From assembly GCA_001824135.1 (NCBI GenBank), contig MHWM01000032.1, positions 1-35,718 of the forward strand: 35,718 nucleotides of DNA, written 5' to 3'. The notes beneath the pieces were generated by a model. The model was not told the origin of the DNA and did not search any database. It was given only the letters and a program-made list of their open reading frames with translations. This document shows, piece by piece, positions 2 to 7,110 of this stretch (position 1 is its first letter; each line of letters begins with the position of its first letter). The position numbers and the translations under genes were made by a program. This stretch comes from Candidatus Zambryskibacteria bacterium RIFCSPLOWO2_02_FULL_39_14 (lineage in GTDB: Bacteria; Patescibacteriota; Minisyncoccia; Phycocordibacterales; Zambryskibacteraceae).

Positions 2-1195
2 GATAAATTAATTGATAACAATTTTAAAGTATCTACTGATACTAGAAAAGATGTAGCAAATTCTATATTCTTTGCTATAAAAGGAGACAACTTTGATGGC
101 AATACTTTTGTCGAAACAGCTTTAGAAAAAGGTGCCACTGGAGTTGTAACAGAAAATCCTAAATTTAAACAAAAGCCACACATATATGTCGTCGACGATG
201 TTCTAGATACATTACAAAAATTGGCTAAAAGATACCGCGAGACTTTCGATATCCCGATCATCGCTATCGGTGGGTCTAATGGTAAAACAACTACTCGAGG
301 ATTAGTCAATCAAGTATTACAAACTCGCTACAAAGTATATTCAACCGAAGGTAATTTAAATAACCACATTGGTGTACCTCTCTCTATTTTATCTATGGAT
401 AAATCTTCAGAAATAGGGGTATTTGAAATAGGAGCCAATCATTTAGGTGAACATACTAAACTTTTGGAAATCCTAAATCCAACTCATGTCTTAGTAACTA
501 ATAATGGTATGGACCACTTAGAAGGATTCGGTTCACCGGAAGGCGCAAGAGAAGCCAATGAAGAAATCATTACTTGGGCAGATAAGCATAAAGCGATTGT
601 CATTAAAAATAAAAATCATGAACTTGAGATCAACTCTCCCCTACCCTTGGCTATCTCTTGGGAAGGAAAAAGATATCAGACAAATCTGGCTGGTAATTAT
701 AATTTAGAAAATATTAATTGGGCATTGTCTGTCGGAGCTCAATTTCAAATCATTGATAAAGAAGAGACTCTTGAGGCTATAGAGAGATACAAATCCCTAT
801 CGCAAAGATCACAATTAGTGATTAAAGACAATAACAAATTTATCGTCGATTGTTATAACGCTAATCCAACTAGTATGATGTTAGCACTAAAGAGTTTTGT
901 GGACTCGGTTAGTCACCCAAGAGGTATCATATTGGGAGATATGCTAGAGCTTGGTGAATACGCTGGTAAAGAACATAAGAGGGTTGTTAAATTTATCGCG
1001 GAGCAAAAGTTTGATGTAATAGTACTTATTGGAAAACTTTTTAAAAAAGCTGTGGAAAAAACGGGTCTCAAACATGTTTGGTTTGAGGATTCTGCCACAG
1101 CCAAAATTTGGTTCAGAACACAAGCATTTGATAATTACACTTTTTTATTGAAAGGTTCAAGAGGGATAAAAGTAGAACAAGTTATAGAGACTTAG
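2..1195 (+). CDS. murF: UDP-N-acetylmuramoyl-tripeptide--D-alanyl-D-alanine ligase (MurF), 5'-partial at window edge
   Basis: The reading frame is open from nt 2 (DKLIDNNFKVSTDTRKDVANSIFFAIKGDNFDGNTF...), so the ORF-track 'M' at 221 is an internal TTG. It has the Mur-ligase P-loop IAIGGSNGKTTT and the MurF-type DCYNANPTSM motif. Stop is TAG at 1193-1195. Confidence 0.9.
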   Translation, partial: DKLIDNNFKVSTDTRKDVANSIFFAIKGDNFDGNTFVETALEKGATGVVTENPKFKQKPHIYVVDDVLDTLQKLAKRYRETFDIPIIAIGGSNGKTTTRGLVNQVLQTRYKVYSTEGNLNNHIGVPLSILSMDKSSEIGVFEIGANHLGEHTKLLEILNPTHVLVTNNGMDHLEGFGSPEGAREANEEIITWADKHKAIVIKNKNHELEINSPLPLAISWEGKRYQTNLAGNYNLENINWALSVGAQFQIIDKEETLEAIERYKSLSQRSQLVIKDNNKFIVDCYNANPTSMMLALKSFVDSVSHPRGIILGDMLELGEYAGKEHKRVVKFIAEQKFDVIVLIGKLFKKAVEKTGLKHVWFEDSATAKIWFRTQAFDNYTFLLKGSRGIKVEQVIET

Positions 1196-1581: not shown

Positions 1582-2859
1582 TCAAAGAGAAGGAAGATAA
1601 GCGAGTGGATCAAGATAAGCATCTGTGCTGGCAAGAGGAATATATATATTATGACACCCTGAACCTGTATCCTTATATCTCTGAGATGTAAATGGGCTAA
1701 TCTTCACCCCCTGAGATGCATAGAGACCGATATGAAGATGTGGTCCGGTAGAATTACCTGAACCATATACTCTTGGATATCCGCCTGAATATCCTATTAT
1801 CTCTCCTCTTTTGACATTCTGACCCGTCTTTACCACAGATGCTGACAGATGAGCATAGATACTTGAAAGACCATTATCATGCTGTATAAATATCCAGCGA
1901 CCATAGGAGTAACAACCTTTTTGGTCATCGGTATTGGCTTCCCCTTTCACAATACCAGCATCCATAGCCATAATTGGTGTACCTTGTGAAGCTCTGAAAT
2001 CAACTCCGTTATGATATCTTGTTGGTCGAACACCAAAAGTATCAGTGACAAAAATTTTAGATAAAGGCCAAGCCAGCAAACCATGTTGTAATTTTGGAAT
2101 AAGAGTTGGATCTAAAGCAAACTGTAATTCAGATTCCAACCTAAAAAGATCCTCTTCAAACTCCTTTTGACGCGCCAGATTTTCGGCAAGCATTTTTTGA
2201 TACTCAGCTTCTTTATTTTTAGTTTCAGTCAATAATTTTTCTTTAGCCTTCTGATTTTCTTCAACTACAGATTTCTGCCCACTCAATTGATCTTGTAAGC
2301 TCAATTGTTCTTCTTTTACTTTCTCTTTCTTTGCTTTCTCTTGGTTTAGTGCTTTACGAGTCTCGCGTAAATCTTTTATCTCTTCTTCCAATCGAGTATT
2401 GAGATCCTCAAGTCTATTTCTATCTCCCCAAATATCTGAAAGTTTAGTAGTTGCTAAAAGATTAAGTAGAAGCGGTCTGGAATCGTAATCAGATAGTCTT
2501 GTAAGAGTATCAGCGATAGCTCTCCGATGTATAACTATTTGTTGTTCTTTCTCATTCATAGTATTTTCAAGCGATTTAATAGTGAGATTAGTGGAAGAAA
2601 TTTTTGACTGTGTGATATTGATATCAGAAGCTAACTTTTTCCTAGTAGCATCAAGAGACTTGACAGCACCACCGAGAGTCTGGGCTTCTTTGTTTACCGC
2701 TTCTAACTCAATCTGAAGCCTCTTTTGTTCTTCAAGCAGAATTTCTCTCTCTTTTCTAACATTATCAATCTGTTTTTCTAAATCACTCGGATTAGCTGCG
2801 CTCAGAATCATCGGTACAAATAAAAATAAAAAGAAGATATTAGAAAATCGTAGTTTCAT
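1582..2859 (-). CDS. secreted M23/LytM-family metallopeptidase with long N-terminal coiled coil (EnvC-like architecture)
   Basis: Signal peptide MKLRFSNIFFLFLFVPMILSA, about 230 aa of heptad-rich K/E/Q sequence, and a C-terminal M23 domain with HNGVDF (HxxxD) and GPHLHIGLY (HxH). Its start overlaps the upstream stop (ATGA). Confidence 0.85.
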   Translation of the reverse strand: MKLRFSNIFFLFLFVPMILSAANPSDLEKQIDNVRKEREILLEEQKRLQIELEAVNKEAQTLGGAVKSLDATRKKLASDINITQSKISSTNLTIKSLENTMNEKEQQIVIHRRAIADTLTRLSDYDSRPLLLNLLATTKLSDIWGDRNRLEDLNTRLEEEIKDLRETRKALNQEKAKKEKVKEEQLSLQDQLSGQKSVVEENQKAKEKLLTETKNKEAEYQKMLAENLARQKEFEEDLFRLESELQFALDPTLIPKLQHGLLAWPLSKIFVTDTFGVRPTRYHNGVDFRASQGTPIMAMDAGIVKGEANTDDQKGCYSYGRWIFIQHDNGLSSIYAHLSASVVKTGQNVKRGEIIGYSGGYPRVYGSGNSTGPHLHIGLYASQGVKISPFTSQRYKDTGSGCHNIYIPLASTDAYLDPLAYLPSL

Positions 2860-3746
2860 TTATTTCTTACCTTATCGAGATTAAAATGCTTCCTATTTAC
2901 CCAAGCCAATTTCTTCTCATCAAAAATAGCTCCACCTTTATGAACACGCGAAATATCAAAGACTTTTATCAATTCATCTAGAGTAAAGATTTCCTGATTA
3001 GTACCAGGATTCCAACCAAGAAGCGCAAGGTAGTTTATAATGGCTTGTGGTGAATATCCTTTGTTTTTATAAGTATCAATCCAAACTGCCTCACCATGTT
3101 TCCTCTTCGACAACTTAGAACGATCTGACGCCAATATAAGTGGTAAATGTGCATATATAGGACGAGTAGCCCTAATTGCTTCTTGAATTAATATTTGACG
3201 TGGTGTATTTGATATTCCATCTTCACCACGAATGACATGGGTAATCGCCATTTCATGGTCATCGACTACTGATGCGAGATGATAAAGAGGCTCTTCCAAA
3301 CTCTTGGCGACAACAAAATCACCAAGTTCAGTCGTATCAAACTCGACACTACCGCGCACTAAATCTTCGAAGACGACTTTCTTATTAGGATTCTTCAACC
3401 TGATAACTTCATTTCTTTGCCCTGCTTCTGTTACTTCTTCTTTTGAAATATAAACAAAGCCACTATCAAGCATTTGCTTTAAAAATTTCTTATATATATC
3501 TTCTCGCTCTGATTGTCTATACAATTCATCGTGTTCTAAACCAAGCCAGATCAGTCCGTCTAAAATATTCTGTTCGAATGCTTTAGTAGAACGTTCTCTA
3601 TCTGTATCATCTATGCGTAAAATGAATTTTCCTCCACGTTGTTTAGCAAAAAGATAATTAAATAAAGTGGTACGTGCCGTACCAATATGAAGATTCCCTG
3701 TCGGCGATGGTGCCATACGCACCACTATGTTATTTTTCGATTTCAT
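2856..3746 (-). CDS. gltX: glutamyl-tRNA synthetase-like protein, catalytic (Rossmann) domain only, 296 aa
   Basis: Motifs seen: APSPTGNLHIGTARTTLFNYLFA (HIGH), RIDDTDRERS, THVIRGEDGISNTPRQ, KLSKRK (KMSKS), NYLALLGWNP, FDEKKLAWVNRKH. The protein ends about where the anticodon-binding domain of canonical GluRS starts. The TGA stop overlaps the next gene's ATG. Confidence 0.85.
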   Translation of the reverse strand: MKSKNNIVVRMAPSPTGNLHIGTARTTLFNYLFAKQRGGKFILRIDDTDRERSTKAFEQNILDGLIWLGLEHDELYRQSEREDIYKKFLKQMLDSGFVYISKEEVTEAGQRNEVIRLKNPNKKVVFEDLVRGSVEFDTTELGDFVVAKSLEEPLYHLASVVDDHEMAITHVIRGEDGISNTPRQILIQEAIRATRPIYAHLPLILASDRSKLSKRKHGEAVWIDTYKNKGYSPQAIINYLALLGWNPGTNQEIFTLDELIKVFDISRVHKGGAIFDEKKLAWVNRKHFNLDKVRNK

Positions 3747-4863
3747 GACTTAGAGCAATTTTAAGAATTTCCTCTGCGACTAAATGCGCGGCTTCTGGTT
3801 TATAGAAAGCTTTTGCGGCTGCCTGCATCTTTGCCCTTTCTGTTTGATTTGTTACCAATCGTTCTATCTCTGAAGCCAATATGTTGTGAGTGAAGTTGTT
3901 TTCTTCTACCACTTCACAAGCTCCAGCGCGAGCGTAGGCAAAAGCATTTTGCCTCTGGTGGTCACCATTTGATTTGACAATCGGTATAATAATAGAAGGT
4001 ACTCCCCATGCTGCTATCTCGAAGATAGTAGAGCCAGCACGAGAAACCACCACAGAAGCCGCCCCAGCAGCCATGCGTAAGGTCAAGGGATCTAGATAAT
4101 CAAAGGCTTTATACCTGTCTTTGTGAGTGGAATTGAAGAGTAGTGCTTCTGCCATATCTTTGACTTCTTTGATATTGTTTTTACCCGTCTGATGAATGAT
4201 GGCATATTTTTCTACCAAGTTTTTTAAACCTTCAATAACGGTATTATTGATCTTTCTTGCTCCTTGTGACCCACCAAGCACTAGTATTAGTGGTATATTT
4301 TCTTCTATCTTTAAATACTCGTGGGCTCCAGCATGAATAGGATTAGCGATATCTTTACGTATAGGATTACCTGTAAAAGCCACTTTCTCTTTAGGAAAAT
4401 ATTTAGAAGTTTCTCTATAAGAGACAGCCACCCGAAGAGCATACTTCCCTGCCCAGAGATTAACACGACCAGGCACCATATCAGACTCGTGTATGACTAC
4501 CGGGATGCGTAAAATATATGCTGAAAACAATACTGGAAAACTAGCATACCCTCCTTTACCAAACACAACGTCAGGATAGAGTCTATAAACCATAATAAGC
4601 GAAGTTAGAATCCCCCACCCTGTTTTAAAAATATCAAAGAAATTTAAGAACGAGAAATAACGGCGAAGTTTACCAGCACTATTTTTCTTGTAAATGATGC
4701 CGTGCTCATAAAGTACTCCTGGGTTATAAGGAGTAGGAGACATATAAAACAGCTCCAGTTCTAAAAGTTTCTTCTCTTTGGCAAGATTGTTGAGTTCTTC
4801 GGCAATAGAGATTATCGGGTAGAAATGTCCTCCGGAGCCACCGCCAGTAAATAAAATACGCAT
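3730..4863 (-). CDS. murG: undecaprenyldiphospho-muramoylpentapeptide beta-N-acetylglucosaminyltransferase (MurG)
   Basis: N-terminal MRILFTGGGSGGHFYP G-loop, LGGSQGA, and a C-terminal SRAGSTIFEIAAWGVPSIIIP...GDHQRQNA motif. It sits between ftsW and the rest of the cell-wall operon. Confidence 0.92.
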   Translation of the reverse strand: MRILFTGGGSGGHFYPIISIAEELNNLAKEKKLLELELFYMSPTPYNPGVLYEHGIIYKKNSAGKLRRYFSFLNFFDIFKTGWGILTSLIMVYRLYPDVVFGKGGYASFPVLFSAYILRIPVVIHESDMVPGRVNLWAGKYALRVAVSYRETSKYFPKEKVAFTGNPIRKDIANPIHAGAHEYLKIEENIPLILVLGGSQGARKINNTVIEGLKNLVEKYAIIHQTGKNNIKEVKDMAEALLFNSTHKDRYKAFDYLDPLTLRMAAGAASVVVSRAGSTIFEIAAWGVPSIIIPIVKSNGDHQRQNAFAYARAGACEVVEENNFTHNILASEIERLVTNQTERAKMQAAAKAFYKPEAAHLVAEEILKIALSHEIEK

Positions 4864-4865
4864 TT

Positions 4866-5966
4866 TTATGATTCTCTAGCTCTAGAAATAGATAGAATGA
4901 TACCCACTTCAAGCAGAGTAATGAAGAGAGAAGTGCCACCGTGGCTGACAAATGGTAAAGTAATGCCCGACAGTGGAACTACTCCAAGCATGGCACCAAT
5001 ATTGACGAATGCTTGGGAGACTATCATTATAACAATTCCTACTACTACCAGTCTAGCAAAGACTGTAGATGCCACGGATGCAATCTTCAGACCTCGTGTG
5101 GCAAAAAGCACAAATACCAGAAGTAGAAATATTGAACCAACAAAACCAAATTCTTCAGCCGCTACAGCAAAGATTGAATCGCTTACCGGTTCAGGAAGAT
5201 AAGTAAATTTTTGTACACTTTGACCAAACCCGCGACCAAACAATCTGCCAGAACCAATAGCTATAAGAGATTGGCGCACCTGATAACTTGCTCCTAAAAC
5301 ATCAGACTGAGGATTAAAGAAAGTAGTTATACGTTGCATGATATAAGGTCTAGTAAAAGCTAGAAAAGTAATACCTATAAGACCAGCTAAAACAACCATA
5401 AGAACATGGCGCCACTGTCCTCCGGCTGTGATAAACATGGCCAGACCTGCTATGATGATTAAAACAAGATTATCTGTATCCGGTTGTTGCAAGAGAAGTA
5501 CTGCAGAAATAGTAAATAAAATGACAAGAGGTAAGAAACCCCAGTATAAAGTCTTAATCTTATCCTTAACTCCAGAACTCCAAGCCGCAAAGTAAATAAT
5601 GAAGGCTAGTTTCAGTATCTCTGATGTTTGGAAAGTGACAAAACCAAGCGCAATCCAACGCCTAGCTCCAGCATGTTCCAGACCAATACTTGGGAAAAGG
5701 ACTAAAATGTTGAGAATGATAGCGATTACAAATAAATAAAAAGCATATTTTTTCCAGATTTTATAATCCAGACGCGAAGCCACTATCATAGCCAAAGTCC
5801 CCAAAAATAGACCAAAGACCGTCTGGGAGAAAGCAATACTAGAATAATTAGAACTTTCTTTAGCAAGAAGACCTAAAGATGCAGAACTGAATATAAAAAA
5901 ACCAGTCACTATTAAGATAATAGAAATAAATAGAAAAGGTTTATCTACTTTCGCCCTTGACGCCAT
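4866..5966 (-). CDS. ftsW: SEDS-family peptidoglycan glycosyltransferase (FtsW/RodA; FtsW by context)
   Basis: Polytopic membrane protein of about 10 TM helices with SEDS-type motifs (RWIALGFVTFQTSEILKL, QSLIAIGSGRLFGRGFGQS, PEPVSDSIFAV, GVVPLSGITLPFVSHGGTS). Located between mraY and murG. Confidence 0.85.
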   Translation of the reverse strand: MASRAKVDKPFLFISIILIVTGFFIFSSASLGLLAKESSNYSSIAFSQTVFGLFLGTLAMIVASRLDYKIWKKYAFYLFVIAIILNILVLFPSIGLEHAGARRWIALGFVTFQTSEILKLAFIIYFAAWSSGVKDKIKTLYWGFLPLVILFTISAVLLLQQPDTDNLVLIIIAGLAMFITAGGQWRHVLMVVLAGLIGITFLAFTRPYIMQRITTFFNPQSDVLGASYQVRQSLIAIGSGRLFGRGFGQSVQKFTYLPEPVSDSIFAVAAEEFGFVGSIFLLLVFVLFATRGLKIASVASTVFARLVVVGIVIMIVSQAFVNIGAMLGVVPLSGITLPFVSHGGTSLFITLLEVGIILSISRARES

Positions 5967-6063: not shown

Positions 6064-7110
6064 CTAACTCACTAGAACTAAGATGACGCCAACAATAGCA
6101 GAGATTACAGAGACTATCCAGTAGCGCATCACTACCTTCTCACGTGGCCAACCAAGAGCTTGAAAATGGTGATGAAGTGGAGCCACTTTGAATACTCTAT
6201 AGCCGTTGAAAAATTTATATACATATATCTGGATAATATCTGAGGCAGTAGTAGCTGCTAGAGGTAAGGCAATTATGGGTAATAAAAGCACTGAATCCGT
6301 CAAGAAAGCAATAACTGACAAAACGACAGTAAGAGCCATCATTCCAGTCTCTCCCATATAAAACCGTGCCGGCGGTACATTGAACCATAAGAATGCCATA
6401 ATACCTCCTGCGATAGCGCCTGAAAGAGCAGAGATATCCACTTGATTATTAACAAACGCAATAACTGCAAAGGCAGTGAAAACTGGAGCCAGCACTCCCC
6501 CAGCCAACCCATCAAGACCGTCAATTACTGATGTAGAGAAAGTAGCAAGCATTACTATGATAAAGAAAGGTATGAACAAAATACCAAGATACAAATCACC
6601 ATTGAAAGGAATGTTTACAGAATCAAAGTCAAGTTTATAGTAAAACCATAAGCTGATGATGATACCAATAAGAGTGACTAGGATTATCTTTATCTTGCGA
6701 TAGATAAGAGCATCTTGGGCATATTTACCGTATCCATATATATGCACAAGATCATCAACTAATCCTATAAAAGCCGCAAAGAAAAAGGCTCCTAAGGGTA
6801 CCAAAGTCTGACTTCTTGAGAAAAAGTTTAGTTTCTCTGTTACTTCTGACGGAAATAATATTGATAAAATATAAATGGCACAAACAGTAAGGAGTACAGA
6901 CACCCATATTATAATTCCCCCAACTTTTGGCGTACTGAGCTCATGTTCAGTATTGTGAATGTTTTTAAAAGCTTCAGAAGTATCCGCATCAGTCCTTGGC
7001 GACCTCTTCCACATCTTGTATTTGTAGAAATAACTAGTGAAAAACGGCGTGATAGAAATACCGATAAAGAAAGTGAGTGCAGTTGGTAAAATTATTTTTA
7101 GTATATCCAT
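6064..7110 (-). CDS. mraY: phospho-N-acetylmuramoyl-pentapeptide transferase (MraY)
   Basis: Polytopic membrane protein with GLVDD, VIDGLDGLAGG and the C-terminal APLHHHFQALGW motif. Confidence 0.93.
   Translation of the reverse strand: MDILKIILPTALTFFIGISITPFFTSYFYKYKMWKRSPRTDADTSEAFKNIHNTEHELSTPKVGGIIIWVSVLLTVCAIYILSILFPSEVTEKLNFFSRSQTLVPLGAFFFAAFIGLVDDLVHIYGYGKYAQDALIYRKIKIILVTLIGIIISLWFYYKLDFDSVNIPFNGDLYLGILFIPFFIIVMLATFSTSVIDGLDGLAGGVLAPVFTAFAVIAFVNNQVDISALSGAIAGGIMAFLWFNVPPARFYMGETGMMALTVVLSVIAFLTDSVLLLPIIALPLAATTASDIIQIYVYKFFNGYRVFKVAPLHHHFQALGWPREKVVMRYWIVSVISAIVGVILVLVS

Follow-up and report, generated by a model that had tools for sequence, protein, structure and literature searches.

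A catalytic-core glutamyl-tRNA synthetase as the probable sole enzyme of its kind in a Zambryskibacteria genome and related species

The window analysed here is a stretch of 35,718 nucleotides from the genome of Candidatus Zambryskibacteria bacterium RIFCSPLOWO2_02_FULL_39_14 (contig MHWM01000032.1 of assembly GCA_001824135.1), which we refer to as contig C32 of genome G000; other G numbers denote the genomes of relatives. It contains a strongly shortened gene for a glutamyl-tRNA synthetase (GluRS), designated gltX' in the following, which is located in a series of cell-wall genes between murG and the gene of an M23 peptidase (Table 1). The start of gltX' shares 17 nt with the end of murG, and its stop codon overlaps with the start codon of the M23 gene, which is complete, as had been proposed in an earlier note made from the DNA sequence of the window. 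The same note was right in stating that no murD gene is present at its usual position between mraY and ftsW.

Table 1. Position of gltX', its sequence motifs and the neighbouring genes in the window.
Feature	Position	Strand	Description
gltX'	2856..3746	-	ORF for a GluRS of 296 aa; Rossmann catalytic domain, shortened acceptor-binding insertion and stem-contact domain, no anticodon-binding domain
HIGH motif (HIGT), residues 20-23	3678..3689	-	From sequence; H20 and G22 invariant in an alignment of 43 sequences
KMSKS loop (KLSKR), residues 211-215	3102..3116	-	From sequence; K211, L212, S213, K214 and R215 invariant in the same alignment
Deletion site of the putative zinc-binding subdomain, residues ~100-104	3435..3449	-	~35 residues of other GluRS absent
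Basic C-terminal tail FNLDKVRNK, residues 288-296	2859..2885	-	In place of the anticodon-binding domain; common to all nine short forms
Overlap of gltX' stop and M23 start (ATGA)	2856..2859	-	TGA at 2856-2858, ATG at 2857-2859; translational coupling
M23 peptidase	1582..2859	-	EnvC-like, 425 aa, coiled coil, hydrophobic N-terminus; PF01551, E 2.2e-24
murG	3730..4863	-	PF03033 and PF04101
ftsW	4866..5966	-	ORF; PF01098 on identical contigs
mraY	6064..7110	-	ORF; PF00953 on identical contigs; directly followed by ftsW
murF	2..1195	+	5' end cut by contig edge; PF08245, 90.5 bits, single match in the genome

The class-I signatures that the earlier note had recognised in the protein were all located, with the motif THVIRGED at residues 169-176 in addition to those listed in Table 1, and the catalytic residues of GluRS are invariant in the alignment of 43 sequences. 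The Pfam profile PF00749 (tRNA-synt_1c) matched the protein with 289.7 bits up to its last position (314 of 314), and the NCBIfam model gltX_bact (TIGR00464) yielded 378.7 bits at a cut-off of 289.95, matching only up to position 317 of 470. The catalytic-core motifs and the score of this family are thus present and its C-terminal anticodon-binding domain (ABD; Pfam Anticodon_2, PF19269) is lacking; a Pfam search with PF19269 gave no match in the 296-aa protein, which ends where the ABD should start, as the earlier note had claimed. Its C-terminus reads FDEKKLAWVNRKHFNLDKVRNK before the stop, the terminal residues of the 296-aa translation being AWVNRKHFNLDKVRNK. The protein also lacks the putative zinc-binding subdomain (pZBD), about 35 residues of the acceptor-binding insertion. 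At this site, the PF00749 match is broken into two parts (2-99 and 134-314), and residues 100 to 104 bridge chain residues 96 to 133 of the T. elongatus GluRS (2CFO) in the alignment.

Because GluRS-like proteins of about 300 aa without an ABD are also known as GluQRS (YadB), we compared gltX' with both families. GluQRS is an ancient paralog which occurs alongside a full GluRS, retains the zinc site and acts as glutamyl-queuosine tRNA-Asp synthetase. All GluQRS models stayed under their cut-offs with gltX' (TIGR03838, NF004314 and related models; 196 against 276.7 and 199 against 256). An AF2 model of the 296-aa protein (pLDDT 91.8, pTM 0.90) ends with a long helix at residues 277-295, which includes the tail. 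In Foldseek comparisons, this model matched bacterial GluRS with TM scores of 0.86-0.91 over the query and about 0.55 over the GluRS chains, at 39-45% identity across the shared domains, and the top match was the non-discriminating GluRS of T. elongatus (45% identity, TM 0.88), whereas GluQRS structures reached only 0.73-0.76 at 26% identity. Unlike GluQRS (PDB 1NZJ, 4A91), gltX' is the only gene of its kind in the genome (see below), without a complete GluRS next to it, and occupies the gltX position between murG and the M23 gene, which marks it as the ortholog of full-length gltX. Judged from profile scores and the modelled fold, the 296-aa protein is a descendant of canonical bacterial GluRS rather than of GluQRS, in agreement with the earlier note. 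Compared to canonical non-discriminating GluRS (T. elongatus 2CFO; T. maritima 3AFH/3AL0), it shares the catalytic, acceptor-binding and stem-contact domains, the HIGH and KMSKS motifs, the gene position and a genome context with GatA and GatB but no GlnRS, and it differs by the absence of the pZBD and the whole alpha-helical ABD of about 150 residues.

An error in the assembly or sequencing of this record does not account for the truncation, because an identical protein of 296 aa with unchanged neighbours is found on at least 24 contigs, assembled separately from groundwater metagenomes, and in one NCBI genome record. This excludes the error which the earlier note had named as a possible refutation, and its statement that no frameshift is involved also held. 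When the TGA of gltX' is read through, 15 junk codons follow before the next TGA, and recoding of TGA as glycine (table 25) does not rescue the frame, yielding junk text and a TAA soon after. Moreover, the genes of nine species stop at the same point at 65-83% identity, and all of their proteins end with a tail of the type F/Y-N-L-x-K-x-R/K-x-K. The short forms appear to be under strong purifying selection, as indicated by dN/dS values of 0.05-0.10 for those few pairs with estimable dS, which is saturated for most pairs, and their branch lengths in a tree of the GluRS core are similar to those of longer forms from the same genus.

We fetched 32 gltX loci from 40 relatives, to which the locus of G043 was added later. 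The encoded GluRS proteins fall into three length classes. Enzymes of 434-495 aa with a full Anticodon_2 match are found in other families of the order, while most of the genus contains intermediate forms of 381-417 aa, in which an internal deletion of about 60 residues has taken the first helices of the ABD and a C-terminal block (GKGNVLWP-RYALSG--SPDPF) is retained. The third class of 285-296 aa consists of the nine species with short forms (G000, G001, G003, G008, G011, G018, G019, G024 and G043). Among 37 species genomes of the genus, 26 contain an ABD remnant and nine the short gene and no ABD, while the remaining two show only fragments at contig edges. The ABD was found in 291 of 301 genomes of the class. 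The nine of the 300 other class genomes without a PF19269 match were candidates for an independent loss of the domain; in all nine, the GluRS gene is missing from the assembly or interrupted by the edge of a contig. Within the sampled genomes, the complete loss of the ABD is therefore confined to part of one genus. The deletion of the pZBD extends much further and affects most of the order (GluRS of loci L006-L036). The earlier note had considered that a truncated GluRS at this locus might already be a documented trait of the lineage with normal activity. The distribution indeed identifies it as a lineage trait, but no description of a natural bacterial GluRS without ABD was found in the full-text literature searched, most subscription journals being outside its scope. 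Catalytic-only sequences of 280-330 aa were excluded from the GluRS survey of Dasgupta & Basu 2014 (PMC3927822).

Some genomes of the survey deviate from this pattern. In G006, gltX extends over two reading frames of 244 and 282 aa (G006:C1:46492-47837), which could represent a frameshift or a split gene, and G007 contains a second, weakly matching PF00749 frame of 299 aa away from gltX (G007:C21:41425-42216). Six genomes of the class (G088, G175, G250, G273, G287 and G313) showed no PF00749 match above the family cut-off, with hits of 18-21 bits below the cut-off in G175 and G287. G088 is rated as 100% complete and G175 as 97% in 6 contigs. These genomes may reflect either assembly gaps or very divergent enzymes.

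The G000 assembly consists of 484,814 bp in 32 contigs and is 98.6% complete by marker genes. A profile search of this assembly detected a single PF00749 locus, so neither the second full-length gltX that the earlier note had suggested looking for nor a GlnRS is present, and the 296-aa protein must therefore be the housekeeping GluRS. Seven further short-form genomes and likewise G043 also contain a single PF00749 gene each. Searches for a free-standing ABD, which would point to a split GluRS, were equally negative. PF19269 gave no match in G000 even at E<=10, a custom HMM of the C-terminal domain built from 25 relatives and run without filters against the 13,333 six-frame segments of G000 returned only noise (best E 0.19), and PF19269 was found in none of the nine short-form genomes, all of which are draft assemblies. 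No complementary domain encoded elsewhere was thus found in the assemblies searched, which argues against the split enzyme proposed as one option in the earlier note. Because G000 contains GatB (360.8 bits) and GatA (474.4 bits) and no GlnRS, glutamine must be attached to its tRNA via the indirect pathway; no GluRS2 is present either, and the tRNA-Gln carries the base pair U1-A72, which is known as the amidotransferase element of tRNA-Gln (PMC9976931, PMC4381286). We found 33 tRNAs in the G000 assembly, including tRNA-Glu(UUC) and tRNA-Gln(CUG), while those for Cys, Trp and Gln(UUG) were not found among them; the assembly is therefore gapped despite its high marker completeness. A tRNA-Ile with the anticodon UAU was called by ARAGORN at G000:C3:3608-3682.

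The tRNAs suggest how an enzyme without ABD might select its substrates. Out of the 33 tRNAs, only tRNA-Glu and tRNA-Gln contain the combination of U8-C9 with the D-stem G10-U11-C12-U13 / G22-G23-A24-C25, and both have A46 in a variable loop of 4 nt. Such an "augmented D-helix" has been described as a major determinant of tRNA-Glu identity in E. coli, and A. ferrooxidans GluRS1 charges only tRNAs equipped with it (PMC9976931). The genes for the nearly invariant tRNA-Glu and for tRNA-Gln are almost identical across species with short, intermediate and full-length enzymes. No co-evolution of the tRNAs with the loss of the ABD was seen across the enzyme classes, and because they are almost unchanged, the loss apparently needed none. 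A loss of U34 thiolation as the cause was rejected, since MnmA is present in G000. An engineered E. coli GluRS truncated at its C-terminus, which keeps the part recognising the D-stem, was reported to be active and specific for tRNA-Glu (PMC2777447).

Among the three explanations offered in the earlier note, we favour that of a minimal GluRS, based on the sole copy, the gltX position, the purifying selection and the lack of any detected ABD. It appears likely to us that gltX' codes for the sole GluRS of the cell, an ortholog of full-length gltX that has kept only the catalytic core and serves as a minimal, non-discriminating housekeeping enzyme. The 296-aa enzyme would charge tRNA-Glu as well as tRNA-Gln, as is suggested by the necessity to supply both and by the D-arm common to them. 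Its choice of tRNA would rest on the augmented D-helix set of U11-A24 and U13-G22 with A46 and no nucleotide 47, which suggests a recognition independent of the anticodon. GatCAB would then convert the Glu-tRNA-Gln marked by U1-A72 into Gln-tRNA-Gln.

Several points weigh against this interpretation. The anticodon bases are strong identity elements in E. coli (PMC9976931), and with MnmA retained, U34 is probably still thiolated. For the engineered E. coli core, a stimulation by the free distal domain has been described, so that a core on its own may be a poor enzyme, and a helper protein not homologous to the ABD is possible. The assembly of 32 contigs lacks several expected tRNAs, so a small gene could be hidden in a gap, and the selection estimates come from few pairs. 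The strongest alternative, which we nevertheless regard as rather improbable, is that the core needs a partner for tRNA binding in trans, either a free ABD diverged beyond detection or a protein related to Trbp111 or CsaA acting in the fashion of Arc1p. The stimulation of truncated E. coli GluRS by its own free distal domain (Dubois 2009, as cited in PMC2777447 and PMC3927822) would agree with such a partner, as would the increased tRNA affinity of yeast GluRS and MetRS in the presence of Arc1p (PMC3592460). A candidate is even present in G000, namely a free-standing tRNA_bind protein of 107 aa (PF01588, 84.6 bits; G000:C3:9314-9592 on the minus strand, locus L122 1489-1812). However, an ABD homolog is absent from the six-frame search of G000 and from all short-form genomes searched, and the tRNA_bind protein is common across the order and patchy in the genus, so it is older than the truncation. 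Five of the eight short-form genomes that were searched (G001, G003, G008, G011 and G019) yielded no such protein, and several genomes with intermediate forms contain it. Because its presence does not follow the short form, we rejected a Trbp111-like helper as the explanation.

It is less probable still, and in our view quite unlikely, that a complete second GluRS or a GlnRS is encoded in unassembled sequence and that the short protein represents a paralog in a secondary role. The 32 contigs with several tRNAs missing leave room for such a gene, and in some genomes of the class GluRS is missing altogether, presumably through assembly gaps. On the other hand, nine separately assembled species genomes would have to miss it, each of them containing one GluRS gene, the short one; this gene holds the orthologous gltX site between murG and the M23 gene, and the marker completeness of 98.6% also speaks against a missing synthetase.

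The third option of the earlier note was a paralog recruited to another glutamyl-transfer reaction, in view of the coupling to murG, ftsW and mraY and the absence of murD from its usual position. Read as a transfer outside translation that takes place in cell-wall synthesis and perhaps makes up for a missing MurD, this option would agree with the tight coupling of gltX' to the murG and M23 genes. We followed the gene order through the fetched loci, as the note had proposed. The order ftsW-murG-gltX-M23, or the part of it covered, is conserved in 30 of the 32 loci, with the genus and 15 further families of the order represented among them. Of the remaining two, one contains only gltX-M23 and the other lacks the M23 gene. 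Because this order is found throughout the order and also surrounds genes for full-length GluRS of 434-495 aa, it is older than the truncation, and the position of gltX' in a cell-wall operon is an inherited gene order without functional implication for the truncation. In G000, MurC, MurD and MurE were not found, which might seem to favour the recruitment. Yet gltX' is the only GluRS gene of the genome and hence needed in translation, and the Mur ligase hits vary from 0 to 4 per genome of the genus without a clear relation to the GluRS form, with none in the intermediate-form genomes G041, G042 and G020. We consider a cell-wall function of the protein very improbable, and the loss of Mur ligases was rejected as a correlate of the short GluRS. 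That gltX' has arisen from misassembly or is a pseudogene in decay, for which its unusual length alone speaks, is extremely improbable in view of the identical gene on at least 24 separately assembled contigs, the common endpoint in nine species at 65-83% identity, the dN/dS below 0.1 where estimable and the invariant catalytic motifs.

The short forms do not share a simple common history. A simple clade of their carriers was rejected by a tree of MurG, M23 and FtsW, by the tree of the GluRS core and by the N-terminal half of GluRS. Between G003 and G015, for example, the M23 proteins are 87% identical and the GluRS proteins only 62%, and the MurG proteins of G004 and G011 share 83% identity compared to 60% for GluRS. 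In a sliding window analysis, the short forms were closer to each other than to the intermediates only in the C-terminal half. Alignment columns 176-333 without the tail placed all nine short forms in one clade as sister to G016 (support 85/92; 86% of bootstrap trees), while their monophyly was rejected for columns 1-175 (delta lnL 100.8, p-AU 1e-4) and likewise for columns 1-300. Because the simple clade is rejected by the flanking genes and the N-terminal half and the C-terminal half is monophyletic, we interpret the short genes as mosaics. The simplest reading of these sequences would be a single truncation in a G016-like allele, followed by recombination within gltX between species. According to this scenario, the pZBD would have been lost first in most of the order and about 60 residues of the ABD next in the ancestor of the genus; the remaining ABD would have been lost once in the G016-like allele, and the truncated 3' half would then have been joined to several different 5' halves by interspecies recombination.

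Substitutions specific for the short forms cluster beside the cut (D/E/N281 to A, E286 to K, I288 to F, and in addition N289 and K292), so that A281, K286, F/Y288, N289 and K292 represent shared derived residues. The core also becomes more positive in net charge, from about -6 in full-length enzymes via -3 in intermediates to about +1 in the short forms, which would fit either a re-surfaced former domain interface or a new contact to RNA. More tentatively, and with less confidence than in the sole-enzyme interpretation itself, we propose that Glu and Gln codons may be read in these species via a synthetase which never touches the anticodon, with the identity residing entirely in the acceptor and D-arm, and that the 3' half without ABD may have spread through the genus by homologous recombination between its species because it was favoured rather than just tolerated.

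As far as sequences tell, gltX' encodes a minimal sole-copy variant of the bacterial non-discriminating GluRS that is real and conserved. Its architecture is shared by the engineered C-truncated versions of E. coli GluRS (Dubois, Blais, Huot & Lapointe 2009, Biochemistry 48:6012; Dasgupta et al. 2009, FEBS Lett 583:2114), which also consist of domains 1-3 only. These constructs derive from a discriminating enzyme of a cell that also has GlnRS, whereas gltX' is natural, fixed and apparently sole, would have to serve tRNA-Gln as well and additionally lacks the pZBD. Deletions of the pZBD are known from Methylacidiphilum, Akkermansia and phytoplasmas (Chongdar et al. 2015, PMC4381286). The structure 8JPV, to which gltX' aligns in one stretch, also represents such a form, but those enzymes retain the ABD. 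The deletion has been linked to an alternative route to Gln-tRNA through GlnRS or GluRS2, and Methylacidiphilum is conceded to be an exception (PMC4381286). Judged from its gene content, the order studied here is a further exception, since the pZBD is deleted and the species are yet dependent on GatCAB without GlnRS or GluRS2, which would provide a counter-example to the published link between pZBD loss and GatCAB independence.

Domain losses from synthetases have also been observed in insect endosymbionts, such as in metG of Moranella endobia (PMC3620526) and in Carsonella (PMC2175510). These cases resemble gltX' in the loss of tRNA-binding domains from an essential synthetase under extreme genome reduction, but concern another enzyme and a host-dependent intracellular setting. 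To our knowledge, neither a graded series within one genus nor a spread by recombination has been described for them.

ABDs are seen as having been added late to a catalytic core of ancestral origin, and an identity based on the acceptor and D-arm has been proposed for primordial synthetases. For GluRS, we know only of engineered truncations as tests of this idea, and the lineage described here would offer a natural, selected test case with a single gene copy. If our interpretation is true, one genus would present a natural series of three steps, in which enzymes with a full, a partial or no ABD act on the same tRNAs, and an essential translation gene can be an interspecies mosaic. The automatic label "glutamate--tRNA ligase" masks this large architectural loss in genomes of candidate phyla.

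Overlapping stop and start codons at the gltX-M23 junction are present in eight of the nine short-form species (ATGA in seven, TAATG in G024), and the ATGA junction occurs in intermediates as well, e.g., in G004 and G009. In G019 (locus L017), an insert starts directly after the gltX stop codon. The 72 bases read of it contain a perfect inverted repeat of 15 nt (ATCCCGTTAGAAGTT ... AACTTCTAACGGGAT), and it could represent a terminator or a small mobile element.

The murF gene at the edge of the window codes for a protein of 405 aa with Mur_ligase_M and Mur_ligase_C domains on longer identical contigs. It is the only Mur ligase found in G000, where tblastn searches with MurC and two other Mur ligases of relatives gave no hits. 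Several genomes of the genus which are 95-96% complete in 2-20 contigs have no Mur_ligase_M match (G041, G042, G020, G024 and G019 are listed), and the cytoplasmic steps of peptidoglycan precursor synthesis may be undergoing loss in the genus. The genes mraY-ftsW-murG are kept in G000 and in every fetched locus of the genus that reaches them. Finally, a hydrophobic protein of 72 aa without a Pfam match is encoded 3' of the M23 gene at positions 1351-1569 of the window on the minus strand, and it is conserved throughout the genus.

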